Virus record (IMG/VR): IMGVR_UViG_2778261638_000005
Span: 1 to 64,000 of that record
Length of the DNA stretch: 64,000 nt
DNA from: a virus
Lineage: Duplodnaviria; Heunggongvirae; Uroviricota; Caudoviricetes
Direction: 5' to 3' (one strand)
Shown one piece after another: positions 2,251 to 63,391 of the stretch; position 1 is the first letter of the stretch, and each line of letters begins with the position of its first letter. Both the position numbers and the translations under genes were made by a program. The notes below the pieces were generated by a model. It worked only from the letters and a program-made list of their open reading frames with translations. It had not been told where the DNA came from and did not search any database.

Positions 2251-2353
2251 GTTAAATCTCCAGATAGTCGCAGCACCCGTTGCGCCGCATACCCGGCCAT
2301 TTTATTACCTTAAAAACCATATATGTATAGAAATGTCATCAATACGAACAGTA

Positions 2354-2368
2354 TTACCTTTCAGGTAA
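2354..2368. promoter_or_regulatory. Palindrome TTACCTTTCAGGTAA (TTACC-N5-GGTAA), upstream part of a repeated regulatory cassette preceding the tailspike gene
   Basis: Perfect inverted repeat; same motif at 18973..18987, 25564..25578 and 25626..25640. Confidence 0.5.
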
Positions 2369-2444
2369 TTTACAAAACGTGCTGGATAGCAAACAAATTA
2401 TTTGATACTGTATATTCATACAGTTATTGCATGGAGAAGATAAG

Positions 2445-2702
2445 ATGCAGCAGTATCACTATCCACTGGAAGACGGATTTACCGAAAGGGTTCACACGCC
2501 GGGAGGCGTCAGATCACTGGTGGAGGGATCGCACTTGATGAAATTACTCCGGGATCTCGATAAAGATGGATTCAATGTCGATGGCCCACTTGCCGAACTG
2601 ACTGCACTGATTAACTACGTAACCAGCTCACAGATGTCTATGCGGGATCTGCAAACACATCTCGACTATTGTGCCGAACAATTACGAAAACAAATCCGGT
2701 AA
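2445..2702 (+). CDS. Hypothetical small protein (85 aa from ATG; frame opens at TTG 2427), oriented opposite to the flanking virion genes
   Basis: ORF with GGAGAAG RBS about 8 nt upstream of ATG 2445; followed by a GAAA-tetraloop hairpin; no family recognised. Confidence 0.4.
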   Translation: MQQYHYPLEDGFTERVHTPGGVRSLVEGSHLMKLLRDLDKDGFNVDGPLAELTALINYVTSSQMSMRDLQTHLDYCAEQLRKQIR

Positions 2703-2709
2703 ATTTAAA

Positions 2710-2725
2710 GGCCGCGAAAGCGGCC
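2710..2725 (-). terminator. Stem-loop GGCCGC-GAAA-GCGGCC; U-rich tract on the minus-strand side
   Basis: 6-bp GC stem with GAAA loop; minus-strand reading gives hairpin then TTTAAATTT; sits between internal virion protein gene and tailspike gene. Confidence 0.35.
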
Positions 2726-2896
2726 TGTGGCATGTCACGCTCACGTTATGACAAACCTATGTACCCTGGCTACACCAGATAATATCAAAACAACTGCAAC
2801 AGCAAATTCACCATCACCAATGATACATTTACGGTTCATAACGCCAAGTGCAACAAGCGCAAACAAAACAAGAATAAAAGCAATCATTTCTCACCC

Positions 2897-5371: not shown

Positions 5372-5376
5372 TTAAT

Positions 5377-27432: not shown

Positions 27433-27460
27433 TTATCTAAAACCTCGGTTTACAGGAAAC
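27433..27460. repeat. gix-type recombination site (left inverted repeat) TTATCTAAAACCTCGGTTTACAGGAAAC
   Basis: 26 of 28 nt identical to the reverse complement of 30496..30523; fits gix/hix-type crossover sites. Confidence 0.8.
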
Positions 27461-28463
27461 GGTAAACAGGGCTGGTAACGCCGTTCAAAAGACAGGCGAT
27501 ACCTTATCCGGTGGGCTTACTTTTGAAAACGACTCAATCCTTGCCTGGATTCGAAATACTGACTGGGCAAAGATTGGATTTAAAAATGATGCCGACAGCG
27601 ACACAGATTCATACATGTGGTTTGAAACAGGCGACAACGGCAATGAATATTTCAAATGGAGAAGCAAACAAAGCACCACAACAAAAGACCTGATGAATCT
27701 TAAATGGGATGCTTTGTCTGTTCTTGTTAAAGCCCTTTTCAGCAGTGAAGTAAAAATATCGACAGTCAATGCACTGAGGATATTTAATTCATCTTTTGGT
27801 GCCATTTTTCGCCGTTCTGAAGAATGCCTGCATATCATCCCTACACGAGAGAATGAGGGGGAAAATGGTGATATAGGGCCACTACGTCCCTTTACGCTTA
27901 ATCTCAGAACTGGCCGCATAACTATGGGGCATGGTCTGGATGTTACAGGAGATATAACAACTAACGCCTGGGTGTATGCAAACAGGTTTGCTATTAATAG
28001 TGGCTCAACCTCATGGATTGATATGCGAAACCAGAATGTCATTTTTGGTAGAAACGCAGTATCAACAAGTTCTGCGCAGGCTTTGTTAAGACAAGACCAT
28101 GCAGAACGCAAATTTTTTGTCGGTGGACTTGGTAACTACCAGTTTGGTTTTTACATGATTAATAACTCAAGGACAGCCAATGGCACCGATGGTCAGGCGT
28201 ACATGGATAATAACGGTAACTGGCTTTGTGGCTCGCAAGTTATTCCTGGCAACTATGGCAATTTTGATTCCAGATATGTGAGAGATGTTCGCCTGGGTAC
28301 GCGAGTTGTTCAATTGATGGCGCGTGGTGGTCGTTATGAAAAAGCCGGACACGCAATTACCGGATTAAGAATCATTGGTGAAGTAGATGGCGATGATGAA
28401 GCCATCTTCAGGCCAATACAAAAATACATCAATGGCACATGGTATAACGTCGCACAGGTGTAA
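27441..28463 (+). CDS. Alternative tail-fibre C-terminal segment (Sv'-like), promoterless in the present orientation
   Basis: Frame is open back through the gix site (starts NLGLQETVN, the same junction peptide found in the expressed fibre); ends ...INGTWYNVAQV like the expressed fibre. Confidence 0.7.
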   Translation, partial: NLGLQETVNRAGNAVQKTGDTLSGGLTFENDSILAWIRNTDWAKIGFKNDADSDTDSYMWFETGDNGNEYFKWRSKQSTTTKDLMNLKWDALSVLVKALFSSEVKISTVNALRIFNSSFGAIFRRSEECLHIIPTRENEGENGDIGPLRPFTLNLRTGRITMGHGLDVTGDITTNAWVYANRFAINSGSTSWIDMRNQNVIFGRNAVSTSSAQALLRQDHAERKFFVGGLGNYQFGFYMINNSRTANGTDGQAYMDNNGNWLCGSQVIPGNYGNFDSRYVRDVRLGTRVVQLMARGGRYEKAGHAITGLRIIGEVDGDDEAIFRPIQKYINGTWYNVAQV

Positions 28464-28994
28464 ATGATGCAGCATTTAAAAAATATTAAGTCTGGAAATC
28501 CTAAAACGAAAGAACAATATCAGCTAACAAAGAATTTTGATGTTATCTGGTTATGGTCCGAAGACGATAAAAACTGGTATGAGGAAGTGAAAAACTTTCA
28601 GCCAGACACAATAAAGATTGTTTACGATGCAAATAATATTATTGTCGCCATCACTAAAGATGCCTCCACGCTTAACCCTGAAGGTTTTAGCGTCGTTGAG
28701 GTTCCTGATATTACAGCCAACCGCCGCGCTGATGATTCAGGAAAGTGGATGTTTAAGGATGGAGCTGTAGTTAAACGGATTTATACGGCAGACGAACAGC
28801 AACAACAGGCCGAATCACAAAAGGCCGCATTGCTTTCCGAAGCTGAATCAGTCATCCAGCCGCTGGAACGCGCTGTCAGGCTGAATATGGCAACAGACGA
28901 GGAACGCACACGACTGGAAGCATGGGAACGCTACAGTGTTCTGGTCAGCCGTGTGGATACGGCAAATCCTGAATGGCCACAAAAGCCTGAATAA
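28464..28994 (+). CDS. Tail-fibre assembly protein (U'-like), 176 aa
   Basis: Paralog of 29023..29556 (shared motifs [36 protein letters not shown]). Confidence 0.75.
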
Positions 28995-28999
28995 AAATT

Positions 29000-29019
29000 A
29001 AGGCCCGCTATCGGGCCTT
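29000..29019. terminator. Bidirectional hairpin AAGGCCCG-CTAT-CGGGCCTT between convergent tail-fibre assembly genes
   Basis: 8-bp stem; A/T-rich flanks on both sides. Confidence 0.5.
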
Positions 29020-29022
29020 GTC

Positions 29023-29556
29023 TCATTCAGGTTGTTCGGGAAATGTTACTGGCAGGCTGGAGGTGTCTGTAGATTCGACTTTCTGCGCATAGAGCATCCA
29101 CTCAGTTAATTTTTGTTTATTCTCGTCGGAAATGATGCCCAGCCGTAGCTGTGAGTCCCATAGCTGGGTTTTATCCCTGACAAGTTGCAACAGGCTTTGT
29201 TTTTCATTCTCTGCCTGCTGCCTTTGTTCCTCCTCGGTATAAGTTCGCTTTATCACTACGCCATCTTTGAACATCCATTTACCCGAAATATCAGCCCGGC
29301 GATTTGCTGTAATATCAGGAACCTCAACGACGCTTGCGCCTTCTGGATTAATTGCTGAAACATCCTTTTCAATACAAATAATAACGTCGTTGTGGTCATA
29401 GACCATTTTCAACGTATCAGGCTGAAAGTTCTTTTGTTCCTCATACCAGTTTTTCCCATCCTCTGTATAAAGCCATTTGATGTTAAATTGTTTCGTTAGC
29501 TGGTATTGCTCTTTTGTTTTAGGGTTGCCAGCAGTAATGTTTTTTAAGTGCATCAT
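29023..29556 (-). CDS. Tail-fibre assembly protein (U-like), 177 aa
   Basis: Follows the expressed tail-fibre gene; paralog of the + strand copy. Confidence 0.8.
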   Translation of the reverse strand: MMHLKNITAGNPKTKEQYQLTKQFNIKWLYTEDGKNWYEEQKNFQPDTLKMVYDHNDVIICIEKDVSAINPEGASVVEVPDITANRRADISGKWMFKDGVVIKRTYTEEEQRQQAENEKQSLLQLVRDKTQLWDSQLRLGIISDENKQKLTEWMLYAQKVESTDTSSLPVTFPEQPE

Positions 29557-29558
29557 CG

Positions 29559-31019
29559 TTAAATACTCCCCGCGTTATACCACGTCCCATTAATGCAATA
29601 CTGAATTGGCCTTGCCTGAGTTGTATCAATTAATTCATCACGGTTTCCGTTAACTGAACCTGTAACGACATAACCTGACCTGTCAGACCAGCCGGGACCA
29701 TTCCATGTCTGAACAGATGACAGACCGCCCAGGCGAATACCTGTAATAAACCTTGAGTTACATTCTGCCTGCGTATATGCACCAACATCCCCCGCAGAGG
29801 GTTTGCGGGTTGTGGTGTAAAACTCTGACCAGTTAGCTTCAAAGCCATAACCATCACGCGCTGAACGATAAAAGATACCGCCGTTCTTATAATTCACGCG
29901 GAACTGTACAGCAGGGCAACTCCCCGCATTCATATTGAAGTGGAGGATTAATGTCGATGCGCCACTGATATCTGCATCATAAACGCCGCTATTCCAGTTC
30001 CAGCCAACAGCTTTATCATTTGCAACCCTGCTTCCTGTTTGCCCTAAAGCAAATGCAGGCTGCTGGTTTTTCGTGTTGTAGTCTCTTCGCCAGCCAGGAG
30101 CATAAGCATCACCATGATTAATATAAGTGAATTGAGCGTTAGTAATTCCGCCACCGCTGGACGTGCTCGGGGTGGTTACACGGATGGTCATGGCTCCTTT
30201 ATTACCCATAACCTCAATAACGCAACCTGCAAGATGAATAGTTCCACAGCCAGTATCGGTAATAATTTTATTATTGCCGTATGACCATGAACATTTGCAC
30301 ATCCAGTATGGGTGATTGAATGCCCCTTGAGAATCCAGCCATTCAATCAATTGTGCCGTCGTCCAGTTTCCTGCACCTGTGCTAATAGCACTGTGAAAAG
30401 CGCGACATGCACCAATATTTTTTGTGAAAGTATCTTTTCCTGGAATATCTGCGCCGTTCTGGTTTTTCTGTAATGCGCCAGAAGCCTGATTTACCGTTTC
30501 CTGTAAACCGACGTTTTGGATAAACAGCGGCTTATTGGGAATATCTGCTCCGTTCCGGTCTTTTGCCAGACGGGCATTGGCATTATCCATCGCAATTTTC
30601 ACCGCTTTTGCGGTGGCTGCCAGCGTTTCACTGGGGCTGTCAGTGGCACTGGTTAGCTGAACGAGTCCTTTTTTGTTCAGGCTGGCATCATAGATATCCA
30701 GATTTTCACGTGCTGTACGCTGTGCTGATGCCCCGGCAGTTTTAATTTCACTGAGGTTATTTTTTATCAGCAGCGCGTTATTGCTCATAATGGCTTTAAT
30801 GGACAGTGCAAGCTGGTTTAATTTTGTTTTATCCGGTTGAATACCGGCTTCTTCCAGCGTGTTTAATAACTCCGCCTGCACAATATTAAACCAGTCCATG
30901 CCGGGCCATGTGATAACATTATTCCCGTCACCTTCTGAAAACCAGCGAACGATAGCACTACGCTGGGCGGATACGGGCGGCATGACGGTTACGCCGCTGT
31001 CGTTATCAATATAAAACAT
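29559..31019 (-). CDS. Tail fibre protein (S-like), 486 aa; constant N-terminus outside and variable C-terminus inside the invertible segment
   Basis: gix site lies in codons for GLQETVN at 30496..30523; repeated NGADIP(N/G)K motifs. Confidence 0.8.
   Translation of the reverse strand: MFYIDNDSGVTVMPPVSAQRSAIVRWFSEGDGNNVITWPGMDWFNIVQAELLNTLEEAGIQPDKTKLNQLALSIKAIMSNNALLIKNNLSEIKTAGASAQRTARENLDIYDASLNKKGLVQLTSATDSPSETLAATAKAVKIAMDNANARLAKDRNGADIPNKPLFIQNVGLQETVNQASGALQKNQNGADIPGKDTFTKNIGACRAFHSAISTGAGNWTTAQLIEWLDSQGAFNHPYWMCKCSWSYGNNKIITDTGCGTIHLAGCVIEVMGNKGAMTIRVTTPSTSSGGGITNAQFTYINHGDAYAPGWRRDYNTKNQQPAFALGQTGSRVANDKAVGWNWNSGVYDADISGASTLILHFNMNAGSCPAVQFRVNYKNGGIFYRSARDGYGFEANWSEFYTTTRKPSAGDVGAYTQAECNSRFITGIRLGGLSSVQTWNGPGWSDRSGYVVTGSVNGNRDELIDTTQARPIQYCINGTWYNAGSI
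30496..30523. repeat. gix-type recombination site (right inverted repeat) inside the tail-fibre gene
   Basis: GTTTCCTGTAAACCGACGTTTTGGATAA, inverted copy of 27433..27460. Confidence 0.8.
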
Positions 31020-50176: not shown

Positions 50177-50463
50177 GCACGGGGACGAGGACGCTTGACA
50201 CCGGCAACGCGGGCACGACCTTCCGCCACATCCTGACCTCGGGAGGTCAGCGTTACGACATAAAAGCCGCGCAGGTTTTCCACGGTGACCAGTTGCTGCT
50301 CTGCCAGCCAGTCAATCTGGCCGCGAACCACATCGCGGGAAACGTTGTGTCCGTATGCATCCAGACAGTCCTGAAGGATGGATTCGTTTGCTTCGTTATT
50401 GCAGTCCATCAGGGAACGCAGGATGACCAGACGACGGTCTTCGGTCAGAATATCGTTAATCAT
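50173..50463 (-). CDS. Mu gp26-like protein (96 aa)
   Basis: Position. Confidence 0.45.
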   Translation of the reverse strand: MINDILTEDRRLVILRSLMDCNNEANESILQDCLDAYGHNVSRDVVRGQIDWLAEQQLVTVENLRGFYVVTLTSRGQDVAEGRARVAGVKRPRPRA

Positions 50464-50777
50464 GAATTACTCCGGTTTACTGCGTTTTCAAGCAGCAGCT
50501 CCAGTTGATGGGAAAATGACTGCACCCGCTGGGACAGCACCCGGATATCGCCGGACAGCTCTGCAATTCGCAGGCGCATTTCGTGTACATCTTCTGTGCC
50601 AGGGATGCTGGCGTAGCGGGTTTCCATTTCGGTCATCCGGTTTTCAAGACGCTCCACACGCTCAGTGCTGGCAAAACTACGACGCATTGCCCAGACGGCC
50701 CCACCGGCCACAACAGGCAACAGGTAAGGCCATAACGCTAAAACTGAAATCAAATCCATTATTCTGCTCCACGGCAC
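50460..50777 (-). CDS. Mu gp25-like membrane protein (105 aa), possible lysis accessory (releasin-like)
   Basis: N-terminal hydrophobic segment ISVLALWPYLLPVVAGGAVWA then coiled coil; position in lysis region. Confidence 0.45.
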   Translation of the reverse strand: MPWSRIMDLISVLALWPYLLPVVAGGAVWAMRRSFASTERVERLENRMTEMETRYASIPGTEDVHEMRLRIAELSGDIRVLSQRVQSFSHQLELLLENAVNRSNS

Positions 50778-50953
50778 CAGTGGCAGTAGTTCGCCATCGG
50801 CTGCTGTCTCAGCACATCAGGCCGCAGCTCACGACCGCAACCGGCACACAATACAGGCGGGTCATACGCCGCCGGGCGGGGAATATCACGGGTATCCCCC
50901 TGCCAGAGTTCAGCGAGCAGCAGCGCCACCGCCCGGTTCTGGTCTTCGTTCAT
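50759..50953 (-). CDS. C4 zinc-finger protein (TraR/DksA-like, Mu gp24-like), 64 aa
   Basis: CxxC...CxxC motif. Confidence 0.45.
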   Translation of the reverse strand: MNEDQNRAVALLLAELWQGDTRDIPRPAAYDPPVLCAGCGRELRPDVLRQQPMANYCHWCRGAE

Positions 50954-51251
50954 AAATTTCTTTCCTTCGGGTCTCCTGTTCCCGGACTGATGCCTTGTCG
51001 CGGTTGCACTGCCCGAGCGCCATCAACAGGTCAGCATTCCAGAGAAGGGATGCTCCCCACGTCAGGGGCTGTGGCATGGGCGGAACGGGCGTTGCTTCCG
51101 TCAGTTCTGCATCAGTTTCGGGCAGGATCACCACCGATGGCACGGGTGCGTTTTTCGAGTTCCCGCAACCTGTCAGCAGCAACGGCAGGCACAGGACGAG
51201 TGCTGCAATTGTCACCGGTAATGGCGGTTGTAATTTTTTGTTTTGCATCAT
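50910..51251 (-). CDS. o-spanin (Rz1-like outer-membrane lipoprotein), about 113 aa, overlapping the i-spanin gene in another frame
   Basis: Signal peptide with lipobox LLLTGC, proline-rich mature part; starts inside Rz-like gene. Confidence 0.6.
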   Translation of the reverse strand: MMQNKKLQPPLPVTIAALVLCLPLLLTGCGNSKNAPVPSVVILPETDAELTEATPVPPMPQPLTWGASLLWNADLLMALGQCNRDKASVREQETRRKEIYERRPEPGGGAAAR

Positions 51252-51498
51252 GATGTTCTGTCTCGTCTGCCAGCCGCGCGGCACGATTTGCGGCACGGAT
51301 AGCGGAAAATACCTGCATCGTCTGTTCCTGACCGTGTAACAACCATTCAGCCGTGTTGCGGGCCTGTTGCTCCGTCTGTAATTCACGGCGCAGCGTCTGG
51401 TTATCGTGGCGGGTGCTGTCCAGCCTGTGCCACAACACCCCGGACAGAACGGCGGCAAACACGGCTGCCAGCAGTAAACTTTTACTGGCGAAGGTCAT
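51112..51498 (-). CDS. i-spanin (Rz-like), 128 aa
   Basis: N-terminal TM helix then coiled-coil; directly after the endolysin gene. Confidence 0.65.
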   Translation of the reverse strand: MTFASKSLLLAAVFAAVLSGVLWHRLDSTRHDNQTLRRELQTEQQARNTAEWLLHGQEQTMQVFSAIRAANRAARLADETEHHDAKQKITTAITGDNCSTRPVPAVAADRLRELEKRTRAIGGDPARN

Positions 51499-52000
51499 CC
51501 GCCCCCCTGATATTCCAGATAGCCATTTCCACTTCGCGACGGTTCATCAGTCCTTTCCATTTATGGCCTGCGGCAAACACCCAGCGGGCCATCTGGTCAC
51601 GCGCTCCGGCGTAATCACCGGCATTGAGTTTTTTCAGCAGCGTTGATTTACTGAATGCGGTAACACCGGTGTTGAAAATAAACGTTGCCAGCGCCGTTTT
51701 CTGATATGGCGTCAGCGGCACCCTGACAAGACGATCGATTGCCGCATAAACCGGTTTTAAATCACTGTCGAGAAGAGCCATACACTCCGCATGGCTGTAA
51801 CGGCGCATTTCGATATCCGGCCCGGTATGTCCCACACAGACCGTAAGCACACCGGCAATATCGCGGTAAGGCATATAAGCGATATTTTCCAGATGGATCA
51901 GAGACTGACGGGTCATTTCCTGATAACCACCCACACCGCCACCGGCAATCGTTGCCGCCAGCAGTGCGGCTTTCAGTTTTTTTGGTATCCCCGCCATCAT
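51482..52000 (-). CDS. SAR endolysin (T4-lysozyme-like muramidase with N-terminal signal-arrest-release helix), 172 aa
   Basis: N-terminal Gly/Ala-rich weakly hydrophobic helix followed by E...D...T catalytic spacing (ENIAYMPYRDIAGVLTVCVGHTG). Confidence 0.75.
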   Translation of the reverse strand: MMAGIPKKLKAALLAATIAGGGVGGYQEMTRQSLIHLENIAYMPYRDIAGVLTVCVGHTGPDIEMRRYSHAECMALLDSDLKPVYAAIDRLVRVPLTPYQKTALATFIFNTGVTAFSKSTLLKKLNAGDYAGARDQMARWVFAAGHKWKGLMNRREVEMAIWNIRGADDLRQ

Positions 52001-52091: not shown

Positions 52092-52514
52092 TTATTTTGG
52101 GCTTTCAGGTGAGAACAGATCAGGCTGATGACGTCGTGTATGCAGCTTTCTCTGGCGGGCAATAATCTGGTAGATCTGCGGCTGGGACAGGCGGTACTGG
52201 CGACGCAGTTCTTCCATGTTACGACCATTAAACTGGCAGTAAAGCAAATCGTCACGTAACGCGGTCAGGATCGTATCGCCGCAGGGGATGTAAAACTGCC
52301 GTCCGCCCAGAAAACAGGACAGGGCAACGGCCTGTTTACGGGCAAGCTCACGGGGATTGCTGACGTTCTGGCGTTTCAGTTCGTTTTCCAGAACATCAAT
52401 CAGATCAACCACCGAACGGGGCCAGCGTGATTCCAGTTCCGGGGCCGGGATGTTATCAATATGTCCGATTAACTGGCGAATTGCCGGATCGTGTTCAAAT
52501 AAATCATGCTGCAT
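52092..52514 (-). CDS. Late-gene transcriptional activator C (Mor/C family), 140 aa
   Basis: Paralog of 53493..53882; C-terminal HTH; position directly upstream of lysis genes as in Mu. Confidence 0.7.
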   Translation of the reverse strand: MQHDLFEHDPAIRQLIGHIDNIPAPELESRWPRSVVDLIDVLENELKRQNVSNPRELARKQAVALSCFLGGRQFYIPCGDTILTALRDDLLYCQFNGRNMEELRRQYRLSQPQIYQIIARQRKLHTRRHQPDLFSPESPK

Positions 52515-52526
52515 ATTTTCCCCCGG

Positions 52527-52646
52527 TTAACAGACAGAAAGATACACCACGGCACTGATGGTTATCAGAACCACAAGGGCAATCACTTTTATCGCACTCA
52601 TCAGCGTGGACGGCCCGAAACATTCATCACTGAATTTTCTGTACAT
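52527..52646 (-). CDS. Possible 39-aa single-pass membrane peptide (MYRKFSDECFGPSTLMSAIKVIALVVLITISAVVYLSVC)
   Basis: Short ORF in the gap between GH108-like gene and C; one hydrophobic helix; weak RBS. Confidence 0.25.
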   Translation of the reverse strand: MYRKFSDECFGPSTLMSAIKVIALVVLITISAVVYLSVC

Positions 52647-52849
52647 GGTATTTTTCTCTGTAGCGCCGGCAATGGTGGATAATTTCTGGCATATCAACGG
52701 ACTGCCAGCCTTTCATGTAATAGCTCCCGTGGGTGCCATCGTGCCCTGTGTAATCCATTGGCTTTGGTGGCGGGCCTCCGGCCTCCCGATGTAATACCTC
52801 CTGTTGTAAACGTTCGCGCCTGCCGAACTGAAAGGACGCATCCCACCCT

Positions 52850-53410
52850 TTACCCATGCAGAACCTCCCGACAGGCGCTGGCGAGCAGATCCAGACGGTT
52901 AAACCAGCCATTCAGATATTTCCCCTGCGAGGCACTGGATTTGATAATCCCTGCGTAATAGCGGGAACGACGCAGGAAGCACTGCAACAGCAGCCAGTCA
53001 GTATCGGCACGCAGAACGGCTGCGCGTGTGTTTTTACCGACGATGCCATCATCATCAACACCTGCTGCCGCCTGGAGGATCTGAATCGCGCGTTTAACAC
53101 CGAGCTGAACGGCAGCATCAAAAACGAATAAGGAAACGCCATCAGGCCATTCGTTACACTTTGCCGCCAGCCAGTAATCACGCCAGTAGATCTGCGCCGC
53201 CTGCTCGCGGGTTAAATCCTTAATGCGGGTATCAGGTTTTCCGTCACCGTTAACATCGGTTTTGCCATCAATAACGCCGTCGCGACGGTCAGAGATACCG
53301 TATTTCGTTTCGCCGCCACGGTCAGTGGGATCATCAACATATCCACCTTCAACATCAGGTCGTATAACGAAATTCAGCGAATGAAGGAATGCAGGGGAAA
53401 ACTCAGGCAT
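52850..53410 (-). CDS. Glycoside hydrolase family 108-like muramidase with C-terminal peptidoglycan-binding domain (186 aa)
   Basis: Motif EGGYVDDPTDRGGETKYGI (GH108 signature) and DGIVGKNT (PG_binding_3-like). Confidence 0.65.
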   Translation of the reverse strand: MPEFSPAFLHSLNFVIRPDVEGGYVDDPTDRGGETKYGISDRRDGVIDGKTDVNGDGKPDTRIKDLTREQAAQIYWRDYWLAAKCNEWPDGVSLFVFDAAVQLGVKRAIQILQAAAGVDDDGIVGKNTRAAVLRADTDWLLLQCFLRRSRYYAGIIKSSASQGKYLNGWFNRLDLLASACREVLHG

Positions 53411-53492
53411 GTTGCCCTCCAGTCATGAACGTTTTGTCGTCACAACAGAATATTGAGGGCGTAAAAAAAGCCGGATTAACCGGCTTTACTGT

Positions 53493-53882
53493 TTACAGAA
53501 GTGAAGGCTGGTACTGGCGGTATTTCAGCCGTCGCATCCGGCGAATGGCCTTGTAAACCGTATTGAAAGTGACACCATAACGGGTGGTCAGTTCGCTGAC
53601 GTTGCGACCGTTAAAATCATTCCAGATACGCAAATCCCGAATCAGCGAGTCCAGAACCTGACCGCGCGGAATGTAGACCTGACCGCCCCCCAGATGCTTA
53701 CAGATAGCCACAACAATCTCCAGTGAATGAGCAGGATCAACACCCAGCCGGGACAATTCCCCGCGCAGTAAATCGTTCAGCTCCGCCAGCAGTGCCGGAA
53801 AGCGTGACGTATCCTCTGCGGGATTGTCAAGATGTGCCAGGATGGTGTCATCCTGCAAATCACCAAATAAATCTTCCGTCAT
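53493..53882 (-). CDS. Middle-operon regulator Mor (Mor/C family), 129 aa
   Basis: Paralog of C with conserved C-terminal HTH block; position after gemA. Confidence 0.7.
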   Translation of the reverse strand: MTEDLFGDLQDDTILAHLDNPAEDTSRFPALLAELNDLLRGELSRLGVDPAHSLEIVVAICKHLGGGQVYIPRGQVLDSLIRDLRIWNDFNGRNVSELTTRYGVTFNTVYKAIRRMRRLKYRQYQPSLL

Positions 53883-54430
53883 TGTGCCATCCTCCGCGTC
53901 TTTCTGGCATGGGCATAAGCCGCCGTCATGGCATCATAGCCGCGCAGTTCACGACCGGACGGACTGACCGGCAATGGAAGCCCGTGACGGGAAAAGGCTT
54001 CACGAATACAGCGGATGTGCCACTGCTTGAGTGTTTCGAGGACTGTCAGCAGCGTGTCGCCATGACACCACGCCAGTGTGGAAACGCCCTGTCCGCCGTT
54101 GCGTTTCGCGGTCAGGCGTTGAACATATCTGTCCAGCGCCACATCACCGCCATCGGTAATAAAACCGTCTTCTGCCATCTGCTGCCAGATTTTATACACC
54201 TTCTCGCGGGGTGTGACATGCCCCTTAAACCGACGGCGTGGGTGTTTATTCTGCTTCTTAAAGCCGCGTTCTTTCATGGCATCGAGCACCTGTTTCAGTT
54301 GCGTAACCGTAAGCTCGCGGCAACTGATTTTGCCCGTTTTCTGCATCAGAAAAGCGCGGTAAGTGTCGTCGTCGAGTTGTAGATCACGACGGGCGACATG
54401 AATTAATTTAATCAGGGATGTGCGACTCAT
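53879..54430 (-). CDS. GemA-like regulatory protein (about 183 aa from MSRTSLIKL)
   Basis: GGAGG RBS before ATG 54430; position before mor. Confidence 0.6.
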   Translation of the reverse strand: MSRTSLIKLIHVARRDLQLDDDTYRAFLMQKTGKISCRELTVTQLKQVLDAMKERGFKKQNKHPRRRFKGHVTPREKVYKIWQQMAEDGFITDGGDVALDRYVQRLTAKRNGGQGVSTLAWCHGDTLLTVLETLKQWHIRCIREAFSRHGLPLPVSPSGRELRGYDAMTAAYAHARKTRRMAQ

Positions 54431-54503
54431 GATCGTACCTCCGGAAAGGGGGCGGTGCTGCAACACCGCCTGTACTATTGATAACACTGAAAATGGAGAC
54501 AAC

Positions 54504-54743
54504 ATGTCTGTAGAAAACAATGCGTCAATCACTTTTAACCTGGTTTCAGGTCTGATGGTGAAACTTGTTCGTAACAAGATTCTGACAAAGTGGGAAGCTC
54601 AATCCATACTGGCCTCTGCAATTCTTGAAAACGTTCAGAACCAGGAGGGGGTTACTGATTCGGATCTTGATGCACTTCGTCTGAAACTTGCTATGTCGGA
54701 TTTCAGCGTTGAAAAAGAGCCTCCACAAGACGATCAGGCGTAA
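54504..54743 (+). CDS. Hypothetical 79-aa protein on the strand opposite to the Mu early operon
   Basis: ATGGAGACAAC-ATG (GGAG RBS) at 54504; overlaps the 3' end of the minus-strand gene 54703..54999. Confidence 0.4.
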   Translation: MSVENNASITFNLVSGLMVKLVRNKILTKWEAQSILASAILENVQNQEGVTDSDLDALRLKLAMSDFSVEKEPPQDDQA

Positions 54744-54999
54744 TCACGTCTGATGGTTTAAGTCCCAGCCTGCGGCGAATAAATGCGTCGCGGGCTTTTT
54801 TGTTATCCAGTGAAACTTCATCTGCAATAATATTAATTTCATGCTGGATAATATTCACAGTAACACGAGCAGAAAGCCCTTCACGGATAGCAATATCAAT
54901 AATATCGCGCATACGCTCAAGCATTTTAGCTTTCACCAGTTCTTCATCCAGGTCTTTAGGCGTAAATTTAGTTTCATTATTCATATTATTCACCTTCAC
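54703..54999 (-). CDS. Hypothetical early protein (98 aa)
   Basis: ORF in Mu semi-essential early region. Confidence 0.4.
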   Translation of the reverse strand: MKVNNMNNETKFTPKDLDEELVKAKMLERMRDIIDIAIREGLSARVTVNIIQHEINIIADEVSLDNKKARDAFIRRRLGLKPSDVITPDRLVEALFQR

Positions 55000-55168
55000 A
55001 ATTCATGCACGCCGTGTCATCGCCCATATCGCAGTGGTTGCATTTCAGCCCGCCACAATGAGGGCACTCTTTCAGATATTCAGGGGCTTCATTACCGCAG
55101 GTCGGACATGCCTGTTTCACCGTGGTAAATTTCCCCAGCCACGAATACGATGTTTCATTGTTTTCCAT
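54986..55168 (-). CDS. Hypothetical zinc-ribbon protein (60 aa)
   Basis: CPTCG...CPHCG...CNHC...CMNC motifs. Confidence 0.4.
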   Translation of the reverse strand: MENNETSYSWLGKFTTVKQACPTCGNEAPEYLKECPHCGGLKCNHCDMGDDTACMNCEGE

Positions 55169-55709: not shown

Positions 55710-56264
55710 TTATTCCTCCGTCAGCGCCACAAATTCAGAATGTTTAATGCGCTGGCATTCGGCGGGAACCGGTCCCTTCACTTCGCCAGCCAGAAGGTAC
55801 ACCGCAAACAAAATGCTGAATCCGTCACGGCTGTGGTGCATTTTCCACACGGACCTGATGTCAAACAGGTCAACGTCGGTAGCCACGTTAAGTTCATTGC
55901 ACAGCCAGCGCGGAAAATCCGGGTTTTTTTCGAGCTGATTTTCACAGTCCCGGATGAGCTTCCCGTACTCACGGCCTGCCGGTATTGTCATATCCGGCAT
56001 TGCGCCCCATAACTGAATATCACCAATGAAAAGTGTCCTTGATTTAATCTCCCATCCTTCCGGTGGTAAGTAGCTAAACCAGACATGCGTAACCCTCTCA
56101 GGCCCTTTGTCACCAGACAAAGACACACCGATTGCTTTCACTGATTGCTGTAATGACTCAATAATCTCACCACGCTTAACAGAAACCTCTTTCAGCCAGC
56201 GAATCGTATAACCGTTAGCGGCTGTGTCACTCAGTTTAAAATAAGCACATGCTTTCATTTTCAT
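55710..56264 (-). CDS. Hypothetical early protein (184 aa)
   Basis: ORF downstream of gam. Confidence 0.45.
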   Translation of the reverse strand: MKMKACAYFKLSDTAANGYTIRWLKEVSVKRGEIIESLQQSVKAIGVSLSGDKGPERVTHVWFSYLPPEGWEIKSRTLFIGDIQLWGAMPDMTIPAGREYGKLIRDCENQLEKNPDFPRWLCNELNVATDVDLFDIRSVWKMHHSRDGFSILFAVYLLAGEVKGPVPAECQRIKHSEFVALTEE

Positions 56265-56355
56265 TCTCTCCGGTTCTGATTAAGGCGCGAGTAGTCCTCT
56301 GACGCATCGCGCCATAATTAAACGAATGTGAATTAATTAAATATTAATGGTGGTA

Positions 56356-57619: not shown

Positions 57620-57639
57620 TGTCAGCGTTCCTTTGCGAA

Positions 57640-57909
57640 TTAATGTTTAACCACATTCACCGGACGTGGTACTAAATCACATTCAGCTTCCATACCCACT
57701 TTCTTCATAGTGGTCAGCATCTCATCTTTGGCCTTTTTAATAATTTCAGGAGCCATAGTCAGGACTATATTTGCCAGTAAATCATGAGGCCCGGTATTTT
57801 CCGTTGGCGAGATATCTGCAAGACATGCTTTTGCATCCAGAACTTCTCTGCGCCCATTGCAACTGTCACTACTTTCCAGCCATGTAAACTCAAAGATAAC
57901 CTTTGCCAT
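57640..57909 (-). CDS. Hypothetical early protein (89 aa)
   Basis: ORF. Confidence 0.35.
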   Translation of the reverse strand: MAKVIFEFTWLESSDSCNGRREVLDAKACLADISPTENTGPHDLLANIVLTMAPEIIKKAKDEMLTTMKKVGMEAECDLVPRPVNVVKH

Positions 57910-58381: not shown

Positions 58382-58392
58382 TATTTATCCCC

Positions 58393-59325
58393 TTACCACC
58401 AGTTCAGTAATTTCGGGTTGCTGTAAACCTCTTTAAAAGCTGCTTTAATGTAGCCTTTGGATAGAGGAACGCCTTTCCCGCTGGCAGCCAGCCACGCCTG
58501 ATTCAGCGTATGAGTTAATACACGTAATGCACCTGGTTTTTCCGCGATGCTCTGCATGAGTGATAATTCATCTTCGCCCTCAATGCCCCAGGCTTTCGCA
58601 ATTGCCACCACGTCAGCCTTTTTGGCTTTACGTAGTTGCTTTGTTCTGGCGAAACGACTGAACAAACGTGCAAGGTCATCTGTTCCCCGGTGTGTGGCTT
58701 TGGCTAACTGGTGTGGGTTGCCAATCAATACCATCCCGACGCCGGTTGCATCCTGAATGGCGCGTAACTGCTCCAGCCCGTCCATGCTCAGGTGGTCAGC
58801 TTCATCCACAATAACCAGACCGCGTGTGCCATTCAGTTTTTTGCGAATGGCGCGGGTCAATGCGCCTTTATTCCTTTGCGGATTATCAATTCCCAGCGCG
58901 TCTGCCAGCTCCAGCAGACACTCAGTCACTGTTGAGTGTGCAGGGGAAAGGGTCACCATCCAGGTATTAGATACACGGTTACTGTATTCACGGGCCGCAA
59001 CGGTTTTACCAACACCCGGCACACCAACCAGAACGCTGATACAGCCCATAACACGCACGGTCTGAAACAGCTCGCGCAAATCACGGAGGGTTTGTGTTTC
59101 CACAAGTTGTGGTGCGCCAGGTAACTCCAGACTTTTTTGCCAGCTCTGATGCCACATCAGTAATTTGTCATGCATCCCTTCGGTATCACCTTTGTAACGG
59201 CCTTTGCGAAGTTCAGAAAGAGTGGCCTCCGACACCCCCGCTTCTTTAGCAATAGCGCTTTGTGTTTTTACGCCGTCAGTAATAAGTGTGTTAATCGTGT
59301 TGAAAACATCATTAATATCGGTCAT
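58393..59325 (-). CDS. Transposition ATPase B (MuB-like AAA+), 310 aa
   Basis: N-terminal HTH, Walker A GVPGVGKT, Walker B VIVDEADHL; follows A. Confidence 0.85.
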   Translation of the reverse strand: MTDINDVFNTINTLITDGVKTQSAIAKEAGVSEATLSELRKGRYKGDTEGMHDKLLMWHQSWQKSLELPGAPQLVETQTLRDLRELFQTVRVMGCISVLVGVPGVGKTVAAREYSNRVSNTWMVTLSPAHSTVTECLLELADALGIDNPQRNKGALTRAIRKKLNGTRGLVIVDEADHLSMDGLEQLRAIQDATGVGMVLIGNPHQLAKATHRGTDDLARLFSRFARTKQLRKAKKADVVAIAKAWGIEGEDELSLMQSIAEKPGALRVLTHTLNQAWLAASGKGVPLSKGYIKAAFKEVYSNPKLLNWW

Positions 59326-59398
59326 ATTATTCTCCGTTTATTCAAATCAGCTTTGTTTCCTTCGTTTAACAGTCCGTTCCCGCGGACTGTTTTTTTAT

Positions 59399-61486
59399 TC
59401 AGGCCAGCGGATCATCCTGTTCCTGTATGGCTACAAGCTTCTGCAAACCCAGCCTGAAATCGCGTTCATAATCTTCGTCGTAATCCTCCTCATAATCCTG
59501 TTGCTGGATGGTTACCGTATTGCCAACCGGGCGATAAACATTATCCAGCCAGGGTTCAGCCTGTTTGTGCTCCAGTATCTGAATGCCTTCATCCTCAGCA
59601 TCACGAATTTTTTCCTCAGCACGTTTGCGCATTCCTTTAATACGCTGCTGTTGTTTGTGATATTCAGCACTGACAGCAAAGGCTGCGCGTTTATTGCCGT
59701 TCCATATCGCCTCACAGATAAAGCTGCCGTCCTTGCGACGTACCGTAATTCGCTCGGCGTCATGAATGTCATAACTGATAAGTACTTTGCGACCGTGTTC
59801 GTCACGCAACTCCGGCGCGTAGTAAATATTGTTCAGCCACTGAATTTCGCACCGTCTTACCGGGCGTTCCACCATCGGGCGGAACATGTCGCGCAGCTCA
59901 AGATCACTCAGCCACTCAATTTCGGTGCCTTCTTCTGCCAGGCGTTTTTTTCTGAACTCTGCCGGGCTGTAATGCCGCCCGTTCGGTTTCATTGGCAGCT
60001 CAGAATGCGGGCGGTTGTTGTACCATTCCACGCCTTCACGAATAGCCTCAATAAGCTCCGCCCACGATGGTAGCTCGCGCATTGCAGCTTTCTGGCGGTC
60101 GTTCAGAGGCTTGTCCTGTTGCATGGCGTTAAACGCTGAACGCAGATCACGGTTAAGTACACGCAACGATTCCCGGTCAGCACCCTTGCCAAAATAGGTG
60201 CGATACCTCCTGGCTATACGCATCGGCAGTGTCCGGTTCAGGCGTTCAATAATGCCGCGCCCCTGTGGATTACCGGCAATACCGGTAGGGTGTTTAATCC
60301 CCAGGCGGGGCAGAATACCCACGATCTCTTTGTCCAGTATGTCAGCCGTTTCACCAGAACCATTATCCGAGTAATACAGAAACGGTTTTCCGTGGTTGCG
60401 AATGCCGTGCTGTATCGCACCGGCAACGGCGAACACGTTCTCGGCAAGGTCAAGACTCCAGCCAACAACAAACCGGGTTCCACCGTCGATCACAAATGTA
60501 ACTTCCGGTGAGAATGGACGCCCGTGGATCGGATGTGCACATTTCAGCTTCATACCGTGACCGTCACCAATCCAGACATAATTCACCGGCATAGCTGTCC
60601 AGTCGCGGCGGGTGAATCCTTCAAGCTGACGGTATTCACTGCCGGTAACGCGCCCTTTTTGTTTCACCACTTCCGGCAGTTTTTTCATGGCATACCGGAC
60701 AACATCATAGGAAGGCATCACCTCCAGCATGTATGGTTCGTCCGCATGGCGACGCTGCCAATCAGCGACAAAATCCTCATAGGCTTCAGACATAGGCCTG
60801 CCGTTAGCCTGACGATACTGCGCCAGAAATTCAGGCAGCCAGCTAATTTCTTCCGGTTTTATTTCGTCGCGCTTTCCTGGTGCCAGTAACAGCAGTCGTT
60901 CTGCGGCATTCTGTGCTTTGTTAAACGCAGCTATCCAACGTTTGAGCGTAATTGCGCTCAGAGTTCGCTCTTTTCCTTTACGGGCATTAGCAGTAATGAC
61001 CAAAGATTCCAGGCGTTCTTCCAGGTTACCCTGCGCTAACCGCGACACAATAAAACGTATAGCGCTGGCACAACTGAATCCCGGCTCCTGGCTAATTCGT
61101 AGAACTTCACAGACAAGAGCAATGCGCGCTTCTGCAACTTTACGTTGATTTTCCGTAAGCGCATTCAGACGCTCTTCTACCAATTGTGGCGAACCGCGAT
61201 ATGCCTCAACAGGCTGTACAACATTTTGTTTGCGTTCACGCTTTACAGGAGGCTGGGTAGTTATCTCCCGCGGGGCGCTTGCCATCAGTTGAGCTACATG
61301 TCGCTCACGTAACGCCCGTTGTGTAACCGGAGGGAGGCAGTCGATGCTGTATTCAATGGTTTTTGAACCCGCACGTTTGCGCCTGAAATGCTCAGATGAG
61401 GCCAGTTTCCTTATGGAATACCGCACCCCTTGCGCAGTTCCCGGCATACCTGGTAACCCTACAAGCTCATTAACTGATACAAACAT
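59399..61486 (-). CDS. DDE transposase A (MuA-like), 695 aa
   Basis: Size, position after ner, N-terminal end-binding-type domain, acidic C-terminus. Confidence 0.85.
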   Translation of the reverse strand: MFVSVNELVGLPGMPGTAQGVRYSIRKLASSEHFRRKRAGSKTIEYSIDCLPPVTQRALRERHVAQLMASAPREITTQPPVKRERKQNVVQPVEAYRGSPQLVEERLNALTENQRKVAEARIALVCEVLRISQEPGFSCASAIRFIVSRLAQGNLEERLESLVITANARKGKERTLSAITLKRWIAAFNKAQNAAERLLLLAPGKRDEIKPEEISWLPEFLAQYRQANGRPMSEAYEDFVADWQRRHADEPYMLEVMPSYDVVRYAMKKLPEVVKQKGRVTGSEYRQLEGFTRRDWTAMPVNYVWIGDGHGMKLKCAHPIHGRPFSPEVTFVIDGGTRFVVGWSLDLAENVFAVAGAIQHGIRNHGKPFLYYSDNGSGETADILDKEIVGILPRLGIKHPTGIAGNPQGRGIIERLNRTLPMRIARRYRTYFGKGADRESLRVLNRDLRSAFNAMQQDKPLNDRQKAAMRELPSWAELIEAIREGVEWYNNRPHSELPMKPNGRHYSPAEFRKKRLAEEGTEIEWLSDLELRDMFRPMVERPVRRCEIQWLNNIYYAPELRDEHGRKVLISYDIHDAERITVRRKDGSFICEAIWNGNKRAAFAVSAEYHKQQQRIKGMRKRAEEKIRDAEDEGIQILEHKQAEPWLDNVYRPVGNTVTIQQQDYEEDYDEDYERDFRLGLQKLVAIQEQDDPLA

Positions 61487-61488
61487 TT

Positions 61489-61725
61489 TTATGCCACCTT
61501 ACGAGCGTAACGGCTGGGCCAGATCTCCTCCGGCGCAACACCAATAGCATCAGCAATAATGCGCTCATATTTTGGGCATTTGCGGTACAGGGCATTCTTT
61601 AAAGAATCCTGGTTTAAACCGGCTTCAATGGACAGAGAGCGTAAAGTAAAACCTTTTACATGCACCGCCGCGACAACATGCGCGGGGTGCCAGTCCTGTT
61701 TAACAACTTCATTTATAGACATCAT
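61489..61725 (-). CDS. ner: Ner-like DNA-binding regulator (78 aa from MMSINEV)
   Basis: C-terminal ...EEIWPSRY matches the Ner signature; AAGGA RBS before ATG 61725. Confidence 0.8.
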   Translation of the reverse strand: MMSINEVVKQDWHPAHVVAAVHVKGFTLRSLSIEAGLNQDSLKNALYRKCPKYERIIADAIGVAPEEIWPSRYARKVA

Positions 61726-61865
61726 TCGTTTATCCTTAAAAGTTATCTGCGCGGATAACACCGCCGGATAATCTCTACAGATAAATATTTGATCACTACA
61801 AAAGAAAAGTAAAGGTGTTTTATCTCTTTCTTTGGTTGTTTTTATCTACAAAAGGATATTTCTTT
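61726..61865. promoter_or_regulatory. Divergent early/repressor control region with repeated TTATC/GATAA half-sites (putative operators)
   Basis: TTATCTGCGCGGATAA palindrome at 61733..61748 and further GATAA/TTATC repeats between ner and c. Confidence 0.5.
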
Positions 61866-62450
61866 ATGAATCATATGGTTAACAGAAAAGAAAGAAGCAC
61901 TGAAAAAGAAAGTGATTTTTCTTTTCCTGTGTTTCAAAAAGAAAGCATTAAAGAGCGCCTAGCCATGCTAATGCGCGGGCGCTCCAAGACTGCCGTGGCG
62001 AAGGCGTGGGGGCTACCGTTCTCAACACTTAACAACTACTTTGAGAAAGATGCGACACCATCTCTACAAGTAGCTAGTCAGATTGCTTTTGCAGAAGGGG
62101 TGAGCATTGATTGGCTTGTTTTTGGCAAGGAGGATATAGAACCAATATCACCTAAAATAGATGAAAACGTCCAATTGCCCCTAGATATAACGCTACAGCG
62201 CCTTCTTGCTATACTAAGTGCTTTAGAAGCATCAGAGGCAGAGCGATTATCAAAAATCCTCGCGCTAAATGGAGCTAAGTACTTGTCACGGTTACTTGAA
62301 CCAGAGAATCAAGAACTAATCCAACTTGAAGGACGAAAACGTGCAGCAGCTCTACTTTTAGATCATTTATCGGATGAAAGAGTTAGAGAGATTTTGGCAG
62401 AAATTGAAAGCGATAAACTCTCAAGTAGTTTAGAATCGAAGGCGGGCTAA
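61866..62450 (+). CDS. Repressor c (Mu Rep-like), 194 aa from MNHMVNRK
   Basis: Divergent from ner at the element left end; N-terminal HTH-like segment; AAAGGA RBS. Confidence 0.6.
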   Translation: MNHMVNRKERSTEKESDFSFPVFQKESIKERLAMLMRGRSKTAVAKAWGLPFSTLNNYFEKDATPSLQVASQIAFAEGVSIDWLVFGKEDIEPISPKIDENVQLPLDITLQRLLAILSALEASEAERLSKILALNGAKYLSRLLEPENQELIQLEGRKRAAALLLDHLSDERVREILAEIESDKLSSSLESKAG

Positions 62451-62507
62451 TTCCAATAGCCCGCGGCTGGTTTTTTAACCTGTTTAAAACGTTAAAATCG
62501 CAGAAAT

Positions 62508-62672
62508 CAGTAGTATCAAATATTTTTTCGTTTTTAGCTTTCTTTGCGACAGTAGTATCAAATCACATGTTGTGCGCATAACACTGTTTTACGTCATAAC
62601 TGTTTGTTTTATCCCATCAAATCCCGTTTGATCCACTTTCCTCCCGGATTTTTCAGCAGTATCAAATGATTT
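62508..62672. repeat. Left-end transposase-binding-type repeats (CAGTAGTATCAAAT x3)
   Basis: Copies at 62508..62521, 62550..62563 and 62654..62667 (third is CAGCAGTATCAAAT); reverse complement of the motif at the right end. Confidence 0.6.
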
Positions 62673-63391
62673 ACCTCTCTATAGCACCCGAAACTTCGCC
62701 CTGGTGGATGGTAAACGTCTCTCCCTGTTTCCGGAGGCGTACTCATGGGTTCTGGCTTTGCCTGTATGCTGATCACCGGATCGGGTATCTGCTGTCCGGA
62801 AGCCACCTTTTTCGCCCAATCATCGAGCAGCCTGCGCGCGTGTTTCTCAACCTCAATCTCGCTAAGCTGGCGCTGATACATTGCACGGCGGGTATCACAT
62901 ACGACCCAGTACATAACCGGATGCCGCCACGGGAATCTTTCGGGACCACCAGGATATAAACTTTTTTCCTTGCTGTACCGGTGAAACTCCGTCATCACAT
63001 CGTCAATGGTGACGCCAAGAACCATCTTGCTGTCTTTGCACCACTTGATGAATTGCCCTGGCGACGGCCAGAACGGAGAATCACTGGCGCGGGCGTGGCG
63101 CATACCAGCAGAAACCTGTTCACGGGTTCGGATCCCCCCTTCAGCAAACGCAGCAATCCACTGCTGTTTTGCAGCAACTTCCTGCTCTGGCGTCTTCAGG
63201 TTGGTTACCACTGCCGCCGGAAACAGTTGTTTCAACTGTTTGAAAAGGGCATCAACAAGCCTCTCTGCTGACATGTTCACTACGTTGTCATTGTTGGTGT
63301 ACTGATGCTCATAACCTGACATGCGAGAAAGGGCCTCTCCGTCACGGTTTTGTATTGCGGTAAAAACGTTGTTCACAAGAAATCCTCCCAT
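62609..63391 (-). CDS. Lambda P-like replication protein (helicase loader); 3'-terminal about 25 codons derive from the Mu-like end
   Basis: VSAGMRHARASDSPFWPSPGQFIKWCKD aligns with lambda P VNAGMRVARRQNRPFLPSPGQFVAWCRE (recollection); reading frame runs across the inferred insertion junction. Confidence 0.7.
   Translation of the reverse strand: MGGFLVNNVFTAIQNRDGEALSRMSGYEHQYTNNDNVVNMSAERLVDALFKQLKQLFPAAVVTNLKTPEQEVAAKQQWIAAFAEGGIRTREQVSAGMRHARASDSPFWPSPGQFIKWCKDSKMVLGVTIDDVMTEFHRYSKEKSLYPGGPERFPWRHPVMYWVVCDTRRAMYQRQLSEIEVEKHARRLLDDWAKKVASGQQIPDPVISIQAKPEPMSTPPETGRDVYHPPGRSFGCYREVNHLILLKNPGGKWIKRDLMG

Follow-up and report, generated by a model that had tools for sequence, protein, structure and literature searches.

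A GH108 muramidase gene behind the middle promoter of a Mu-type prophage that also carries the Mu SAR endolysin system

Phage Mu lyses its host by means of the signal-arrest-release (SAR) endolysin gp22, the spanins gp23 and gp23.1 and the DUF2730 protein gp25, for which a function as "releasin" has been described, and it does so without a holin, gp19 and gp20 not being holins (PMC9239132). In the same work, Chamblee et al. looked in Mu-like genomes for the endolysin that accompanies DUF2730, and their list gives, for a group of Vibrio Mu-like myophages, muramidases that combine a GH108 domain with a PG_binding_3 domain (PMC9239132 Table S1). A gene of this kind is also found in the Mannheimia Mu-like phage 3927AP2, where mor is gene 18 and lys (GH108 plus PG_binding_3) is gene 19 (PMC4553209), and GH108 endolysins of Mu-like phages are already documented. 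Here we describe a Mu-type prophage that carries both kinds of enzyme. It lies on the minus strand of a stretch of 64,000 nucleotides (nt) (positions 1 to 64,000 of the IMG/VR virus record IMGVR_UViG_2778261638_000005; the window), between about 25.8 kb and about 62.7 kb as judged by a blastn comparison with the complete Mu genome. The window contains the complete lysis set of Mu, with a DNA identity of about 98%, and, as the preliminary description of this DNA had noted, a second muralytic gene of the GH108 family accompanies the GH24 gene of the SAR endolysin.

The identity of the GH108 product is clear. The earlier assignment to GH108 and PG_binding_3 held up in the profile hidden Markov model search, with both profiles far above their curated cut-offs: Glyco_hydro_108 (PF05838) matches residues 20-104 (E=8.1e-24, 84.4 bits against a cut-off of 21.2) and PG_binding_3 (PF09374) matches residues 107-173 (E=6.8e-14, 52.3 bits against 24.6). 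The protein of 186 amino acids (aa) also matches PHROG 315, "endolysin" (3.9e-50). The closest solved structures by sequence are NMB1012 (2IKB/2IS5, E=3e-18) and Brucella SagA (7DNP, 7e-18), and the Salmonella TtsA family (6V3Z/6V40) is more remote (E=5e-5, 21 to 24% identity). Glu17, Asp26 and Thr31 of SagA are T4-lysozyme-like catalytic residues situated in a flexible loop (PMC8334348); E21, D30 and T35 of the window protein align to them and are invariant among 41 homologues, and the Glu-Asp-Thr residues of the EGGY...DxGGxT loop are thus retained. An AlphaFold2 model built from the 41 homologues (mean pLDDT 85.8, with only 54 to 65 in residues 21-40 of the catalytic loop) has SagA 7DNP as its best Foldseek match (E=2.5e-5, TM 0.73/0.77), with 2IKB, 2IS5, 6V3Z and 6V40 as other matches, and it predicts a two-domain helical clamp fold like that of SagA, NMB1012 and TtsA. 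No signal peptide, SAR segment or transmembrane (TM) segment was found in the protein, whose maximum 19-residue Kyte-Doolittle hydropathy is 1.3 and whose N terminus is not hydrophobic. We regard the product as probably a soluble GH108 N-acetylmuramidase that is made in the cytoplasm.

The gene lies between mor and C, as had been described, with GemA and mor upstream and C, the GH24 Phage_lysozyme gene and the spanin genes downstream (Table 1); the flanking genes had been named correctly, but gp18 and gp20, which stand between GH108 and C, had been overlooked. In the Mu record AF083977, positions 9163-9233 are annotated as "middle promoter, activated by Mor" plus a terminator, and the window is near-identical to Mu through this promoter, Pm, to about the -10 region (about position -7), after which it diverges at once. 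From Pm to gene 18, Mu has a leader of 24 nt, whereas the window has a leader of 29 nt and the GH108 gene of 561 nt. The dyad AAGCCGGTWAATCCGGCTTTTTTTA is the Mor site and terminator of Mu and is invariant directly upstream of GH108, both in loci with two lysins (dual-lysin) and in loci where GH108 is the only recognizable one (GH108-only). A scan for consensus terminators gave two weak matches with 5-bp stems on the coding strand from Pm to C, one in the GH108 open reading frame (ORF) and one in C (the two strands together had 5, where chance would give 2.3), and a scan for sigma-70-like promoters gave none between the Pm region and C. GH108 would then be the first gene of a presumed Pm transcript that continues into gp18, gp20 and C, and its place behind a conserved Pm and ahead of C agrees with the earlier assignment to the Mor-dependent middle transcription unit.

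From this middle rather than late timing the preliminary description had suggested, with some reserve, a role other than final lysis. Related phages do not bear this out. Klebsiella pneumoniae prophages, Klebsiella phage Kp4866-3, Escherichia sp. MOD1, E. coli PSS-15 and Shewanella phage MuM16-2 share the order GemA, Mor, an optional gene, GH108, gp18 (PF26867, the annotation carried by gp18 homologues in related phages), in some cases a protein of 135/136 aa with four TM segments, and a protein of about 200 aa, followed by a DksA/TraR zinc-finger protein, DUF2730, gp27 and terminase. In the stretches of these relatives that were examined, domain annotation revealed neither a C gene nor a GH24 lysozyme gene, and the same slot holds the only recognizable endolysin in Klebsiella, Escherichia and Shewanella; the Mannheimia and Vibrio phages listed with a GH108 endolysin are further evidence. 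Genome inspection, by domain annotation and published tables, thus places homologues as the sole endolysin of related phages, which is the finding that the preliminary description had named as one that would speak against its interpretation. In a phage collection, 237 records have a homologue, and most of the annotated best matches are called endolysin or lysozyme. Endolysins are generally made ahead of time, and the timing of lysis depends on what lets them reach the wall. Judged from gene order, Mu-like phages normally have their endolysin gene immediately after the Mor-dependent promoter, and middle timing is therefore no argument for a non-lytic role.

A gp18 homologue directly follows GH108 in every Mu-like phage examined, and the window gp18 still shares 40% identity (E=9e-13) with the protein after GH108 in Shewanella MuM16-2. 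In the window, the ATG of gp18 overlaps the GH108 stop codon (ATGGGTAA). Constant adjacency and the overlap of stop and start suggest a functional partnership of GH108 and gp18. Mu itself keeps gp18 without GH108.

The reading that we favor, and hold to be probable, is that of an auxiliary muramidase that stays in the cytoplasm until the inner membrane fails and then acts on the wall. The protein would be made from Pm together with gp18, gp20 and C and would build up in the cytoplasm, with its T4-lysozyme-like Glu-Asp-Thr catalytic loop predicted to be clamped against the C-terminal peptidoglycan-binding helical bundle. Since it has neither an export signal nor a putative holin, it would reach the wall only at the membrane failure driven by the SAR endolysin, gp25 and the spanins, and would from then on serve as an auxiliary muramidase. 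Its contribution would not be essential, since Muviruses without GH108 lyse their hosts normally, and GH108 is probably not required for lysis.

Several points weigh against this reading. That GH108-negative Mu and vB_YpM_3/23 lyse their hosts normally (Yersinia Mu-like phage paper) is itself one of them. No route of export was found for the GH108 protein, neither a signal nor a SAR segment, and the holin-like proteins of about 200 aa and the 4-TM proteins of relatives, as well as Mu gp19, gave no tblastn match in the window (all E>0.4). The protein of about 200 aa, which is homologous between Enterobacterales and Shewanella (E=5e-43), is itself a weak candidate for a holin whose place would have been taken by C, Lys and the spanins in Mu; its matches to PF11351 ("Holin of 3TMs, for gene-transfer release", RcGTA-type) are below threshold (E=6e-4 to 9e-3). 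The status of GH108 as sole endolysin in the relatives was read from stretches of about 14 kb, in addition to the published tables. Leucine in place of histidine at residue 103 (H103L) could lower the activity of the enzyme. Finally, strong purifying selection is hard to square with an enzyme that acts only after the membrane has been broken, and the ratio of non-synonymous to synonymous substitution rates (dN/dS) was calculated with an in-house Nei-Gojobori script from small counts.

A different possibility, which we think unlikely, is that the gene is a functionless relic of lysis-cassette replacement, intact but useless without a holin and heading for loss as in Mu. The distribution of the gene would fit this. 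Among 5426 complete E. coli genomes, 41 have a Mu-type mor and 8 of these have the GH108 gene at at least 95% identity, and of about 12 sequenced Muviruses only vB_YpM_5 and vB_YpM_6 have it. The lack of a holin-like partner in the window and the full lytic ability of GH108-negative sister phages would also be expected of a relic, as would H103L, since residue 103 corresponds to His92 of SagA, which hydrogen-bonds the acetyl group of N-acetylmuramic acid (MurNAc) (PMC8334348). The SagA His92 equivalent, which hardly varies in the family, is a substrate-binding and not a catalytic residue, and it is His in all 40 aligned homologues but this exact sequence and also in the other 13 full-length members of the cluster, so that Leu occurs in the window allele alone among the alleles read. 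A private, possibly inactivating mutation of this copy was considered and was ruled out as private, because 118 public contigs encode the exact Leu103 protein, which makes it the commonest of the alleles read; their records are assigned to Salmonella, Escherichia, Cronobacter and "Enterobacteriaceae".

The selection data speak against a relic. The window gene differs from that of SE11, another dual-lysin lineage, by 22 synonymous and 3 non-synonymous changes (dN/dS of about 0.04), and comparison with the distant GH108-only relatives gives 0.14 to 0.17. The prophages of FDAARGOS_1059 and elppa5 encode an identical protein (WP_001113880.1) from differing DNA, and the low dN/dS together with this identity points to a maintained function. 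In addition, the ORF and the catalytic triad are intact in every copy examined, and the gene has kept its strong ribosome-binding site and still overlaps gp18.

Somewhat less probable still is a backup or condition-specific endolysin that has a holin-independent route to the wall, for example via the DUF2730 protein gp25 or via gp18, and that would be useful where the GH24 SAR endolysin fails, as in other hosts, in stationary-phase walls with LD cross-links or in the presence of periplasmic lysozyme inhibitors. Such a role would account for purifying selection despite the lack of a holin, and DUF2730 proteins do pair with cytoplasmic endolysins, those of GH108 included, in Mu-like phages (PMC9239132). 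It would also suit gp18, a constant and translationally coupled neighbor from Enterobacterales to Shewanella, and the presence of the exact protein in Escherichia, Salmonella and Cronobacter records. TtsA, a relative within GH108 that lacks a signal sequence, acts in the periplasm, and no holin has yet been identified for it. However, the likeness to TtsA is remote at the values given above, and export would be argued by analogy, gp25 having been described as releasing membrane-tethered SAR endolysins and not as exporting soluble proteins (PMC9239132). The more general proposal that Mu-type phages deliver a cytoplasmic muramidase independently of a holin, such as through the releasin gp25 or the always-adjacent gp18, is conceivable since strong purifying selection maintains a soluble endolysin without a signal in holin-less phages, but we rate it as improbable. 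If true, it would extend the releasin concept from SAR to cytoplasmic endolysins, with the dual-endolysin Muviruses as a natural system.

A non-lytic function, whether as a middle-phase wall-remodelling or secretion-type muramidase like SagA and TtsA or as a virion-associated entry lysin, would fit the middle promoter and the use of these structural relatives by secretion systems and not for lysis, but it is very improbable, given that the promoter-proximal slot is that of the only recognizable endolysin in related Mu-like phages, that the gene is found neither in the head nor in the tail module and shows no fusion with a structural protein, that the scan gave no independent sigma-70-like promoter for expression in the lysogen, that the membrane anchor of SagA has no counterpart in the window protein and that the annotated phage records mostly name an endolysin or lysozyme.

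The GH108 muramidase is most likely an inherited second lysis enzyme rather than a new function. Its GC content (0.528) equals that of the prophage (0.526), its nearest GH108-only homologues are only 71 to 73% identical with dS above 1.1, and its divergence from the GH108-only relatives (71% at the amino acid level) is like that of adjacent backbone genes or below it (62 to 64% for mor, about 70% for gp18 and 45 to 47% for gp27). A possible deletion scar is seen in Mu, where 9 of the last 17 nt of the leader are the same as in the 3' end of GH108. Retention here and loss in Mu are favored over recent gain by the equal GC content, the lack of a close donor, the backbone-like divergence and the possible scar. 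Recent horizontal gain, which was considered on these same grounds, is less likely.

All combinations occur among other E. coli prophages. The elppa5 prophage of E. coli is Mu plus GH108, which is placed exactly between Pm and gene 18 (GH108, gp18, gp19, gp20, C, Lys), and the layout of the FDAARGOS_1059 prophage and of the Yersinia phages vB_YpM_5 and vB_YpM_6 matches that of the window. In the window, Mu gene 19 (120 aa, four TM segments) is cleanly absent at the gp18-gp20 junction (52646-52660), and from gp20 onward the identity to Mu is back at 99%. Gene 19 is absent also from SfMu, vB_YpM_3/23 and PhiR68_1 and is present in Mu, D108, elppa5 and SE11. Mu gp19 matches the 135/136-aa 4-TM protein of GH108-only phages at a BLASTP E value of 0.015 over 22 residues and has the same position and topology, and the two are tentatively homologous. 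SE11 has the order GH108, gp18, gp19', gp20', C', a 142-aa GH24 protein and DUF2730. This is a third dual-lysin layout (locus L010, 1843-2271 for the GH24 protein, which gives a partial Phage_lysozyme profile match at 6e-11), and no spanin genes are annotated between the GH24 protein and DUF2730.

The most economical history would have three steps. An ancestral Mu-like cassette would have consisted of GH108, gp18, perhaps the 4-TM protein and the holin-like protein; the Mu lineage of E. coli would then have gained C, the SAR GH24 endolysin and the spanins where the holin-like gene had stood; and GH108, thereby dispensable, would have been lost repeatedly (it is absent from Mu, D108 and SfMu) and kept in a minority of Muviruses.

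The preliminary description had also pointed to an Asp/Gly-rich insert, DGVIDGKTDVNGDGKPD (residues 44-60), that looked like a metal-binding loop. The insert is real and conserved, and it carries a calcium-loop-like motif. D41, R43, D44, G45, D48, G49, D52, G55, D56 and P59 are invariant among the 41 homologues and D60 is nearly so, and residues 41-60 are almost unchanged across Enterobacterales homologues of 64 to 73% identity. When 103 GH108 representatives clustered at 50% identity were scored for the length of the segment from the catalytic motif to the next helix, three length classes emerged: the segment was 21 residues long in 32 proteins, 30 in another 30 and 35 in 23. The window protein belongs to the 35-residue class, which keeps the Asp/Gly pattern even at about 40% identity, and by this comparison the loop is a conserved feature of a subfamily and no peculiarity of this gene. 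The stretch D52-V-N-G-D56-G-K-P-D60 fits the motif D-x-[DN]-x-D-G-x-x-D, and D52-x-N-x-D56-G-x-x-D60 may be a calcium loop of the DxDxDG/EF-hand type. The one profile that lends support is FG-GAP, which the loop peptide matches below threshold (E=0.023, 15 bits against a cut-off of 22.1), and metal binding by the loop is plausible.

The prophage has 98% DNA identity to Mu over window positions 30485-52649, and mor, C and the GH24 lysozyme gene have 97 to 99%; gp22 is labelled as SAR endolysin in AF083977, and the o-spanin gene is embedded in the i-spanin gene and runs past its end. The mechanically called GemA ORF (53879-54577, minus strand) has 232 aa from a TTG start against 183 aa for Mu GemA. 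The N-terminal extension is probably not real, and the ATG at 54430 (MSRTSLIK...) matches the Mu start. The invertible G segment with the tail-fiber genes (27433-30523) is in the orientation opposite to that of the Mu reference, and divergence from Mu prevents alignment over part of it (about 27734-28472). The left-end early region at 58386-62700 (repressor, ner, transposase A and B) has no alignment to Mu at the megablast level, and the same applies to several small early genes at 54472-54962, 55721-56275 and 57634-57902, which indicates a different immunity and transposition module and a mosaic semi-essential region. One ORF of the mosaic region, Cys-rich and of 60 aa, lies at 54986-55168. 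Outside the prophage, window positions 1-6000 are 100% identical to E. coli strain WP3-S18-ESBL-09 and apparently belong to another prophage, the matches near this flank being annotated as BRO, tail-fiber and toxin-antitoxin genes; the identity implies that the host was E. coli or a very close relative.

Table 1. Positions of the GH108 gene, its parts and its neighbors in the window, and of the protein of about 200 aa in three loci of relatives (L005, L008 and L015)
Feature	Position	Strand	Basis or remark
GH108 muramidase gene	52850..53410	-	186 aa, no signal peptide or TM segment; ORF list, Pfam, PHROG, AlphaFold2 model
Catalytic GH108 domain, residues 20-104, with E21/D30/T35 triad	53099..53353	-	Pfam; SagA alignment
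E21 codon	53348-53350	-	Alignment to SagA
Asp/Gly-rich loop, residues 41-60, DRRDGVIDGKTDVNGDGKPD	53231..53290	-	DxNxDGxxD calcium-loop-like motif
Leu103 codon CTC (CAC, His, in others)	53102..53104	-	Position equals SagA His92
PG_binding_3 domain, residues 107-173	52892..53092	-	Pfam PF09374
Shine-Dalgarno sequence GGAGGG of GH108 gene	53415..53420	-	4 nt before ATG; read from the sequence
Homologue of Mu middle promoter Pm, overlapping early-operon terminator	53440..53500	-	Alignment to Mu 9163-9233
Dyad GCCGGTTAATCCGGC (Mor site/terminator)	53470-53484	-	Invariant in 7 Mu-like loci
mor, middle-promoter activator	53493..53882	-	Pfam Mor 4e-33; 97.6% DNA identity to Mu
gp18 homologue, 76 aa, soluble	52627..52857	-	76% DNA identity to Mu gene 18; PHROG 2121
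gp20 homologue, 39 aa, one TM segment	52527..52646	-	PHROG 19823
C, late-gene activator	52092..52514	-	Pfam Mor family 9e-34; 98.9% DNA identity to Mu
SAR endolysin, Mu gp22 homologue, GH24	51482..52000	-	Pfam Phage_lysozyme 1e-37; nearly identical to Mu gp22
i-spanin, Mu gp23 homologue	51112..51498	-	ORF list, AF083977 annotation
o-spanin, Mu gp23.1 homologue, lipobox LLTGC	50910..51251	-	ORF translation; position mapped from AF083977 annotation
gp25 (DUF2730 "releasin") homologue	50460..50759	-	Translation; inside block of 98% DNA identity to Mu
Protein of about 200 aa after GH108/gp18	L005 8191-8796; L008 8223-8831; L015 4780-5388		Coiled-coil-like middle, C-terminal TM segments

The protein itself is already public, including in RefSeq, with the automatic annotation "glycoside hydrolase family 108 protein" or "N-acetylmuramidase". 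We found no published account of a GH108 gene alongside the Mu SAR endolysin system and no published proposal that genes 18 and 19 of Mu are what is left of an earlier GH108 lysis cassette, and the literature on phages of Gram-negative hosts with two endolysins yielded nothing relevant. The paper on Yersinia Mu-like phages that includes vB_YpM_5 and vB_YpM_6 has no mention of lysozyme, endolysin or peptidoglycan. The enzyme is ordinary, and the value of the locus lies in its genomic context, which makes a modest evolutionary point and not a new kind of system. The dual-lysin Muviruses look like evolutionary intermediates between two lysis systems, the cassette of holin and cytoplasmic endolysin that most Mu-like phages have and the holin-less system of SAR endolysin and releasin reported for Mu in 2022. 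Seen in this way, genes 18 and 19 of Mu would be leftovers of the older lysis cassette, and the prophages could serve as a test bed for the replacement of one lysis strategy by another, for a cytoplasmic endolysin without a holin and for the roles of the middle genes 18 and 19.

Among systems beyond the Mu-like phages, the best matches are SagA of Brucella abortus (7DNP) and NMB1012 of Neisseria (2IKB), with E values of about 1e-18 and TM values of 0.6 to 0.77. They share with the window protein the Glu-Asp-Thr catalytic loop and the clamp-like two-domain fold, whereas the loop of the window protein is about 6 to 10 residues longer, with the Asp/Gly motif, and the protein has Leu for the MurNAc-binding His92. 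SagA has a membrane anchor (the crystallized construct was SagA-deltaTM) and serves type IV secretion, while the window protein is unanchored. TtsA and Sen1395 of Salmonella Typhi (6V40, 6V3Z), the muramidases of type 10 secretion, have a GH108-type fold with a PG_binding_3-like C-terminal domain, and TtsA is like the window protein in the absence of a signal sequence and of an identified cognate holin. The ttsA gene is, however, a host-regulated chromosomal gene for toxin export and the window gene stands behind a lytic-cycle promoter of the phage; no gene for a secreted cargo was found near it, which sets it apart from TtsA-like type 10 secretion. The founding member of the CAZy family GH108 is gp61 of coliphage N4, likewise an endolysin with N-acetylmuramidase activity. 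N4 is a different type of phage with a conventional late lysis cassette.

The closest systems are those of the Mu-like phages. The GH108 endolysins of Vibrio, Mannheimia (3927AP2 lys), Shewanella (MuM16-2 p20) and Klebsiella (Kp4866-3) phages have the same two-domain architecture at 41 to 71% identity, and as in the window the gene comes directly after mor and the Mor-site dyad, with gp18 downstream and DUF2730 nearby. In those phages, GH108 is the only recognizable endolysin and a holin-like protein of about 200 aa follows downstream, whereas in the window this protein is absent and C, the SAR GH24 endolysin and the spanins are also present. The Muvirus GH108 protein differs from these relatives also in its C terminus, which is 7 to 12 residues shorter and overlaps the start of gp18. 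With Mu, finally, the window shares the same layout of Pm, C and Plys, and the two differ at the start of the middle operon, where Mu lacks the GH108 gene behind its short leader but has the 4-TM gene 19.

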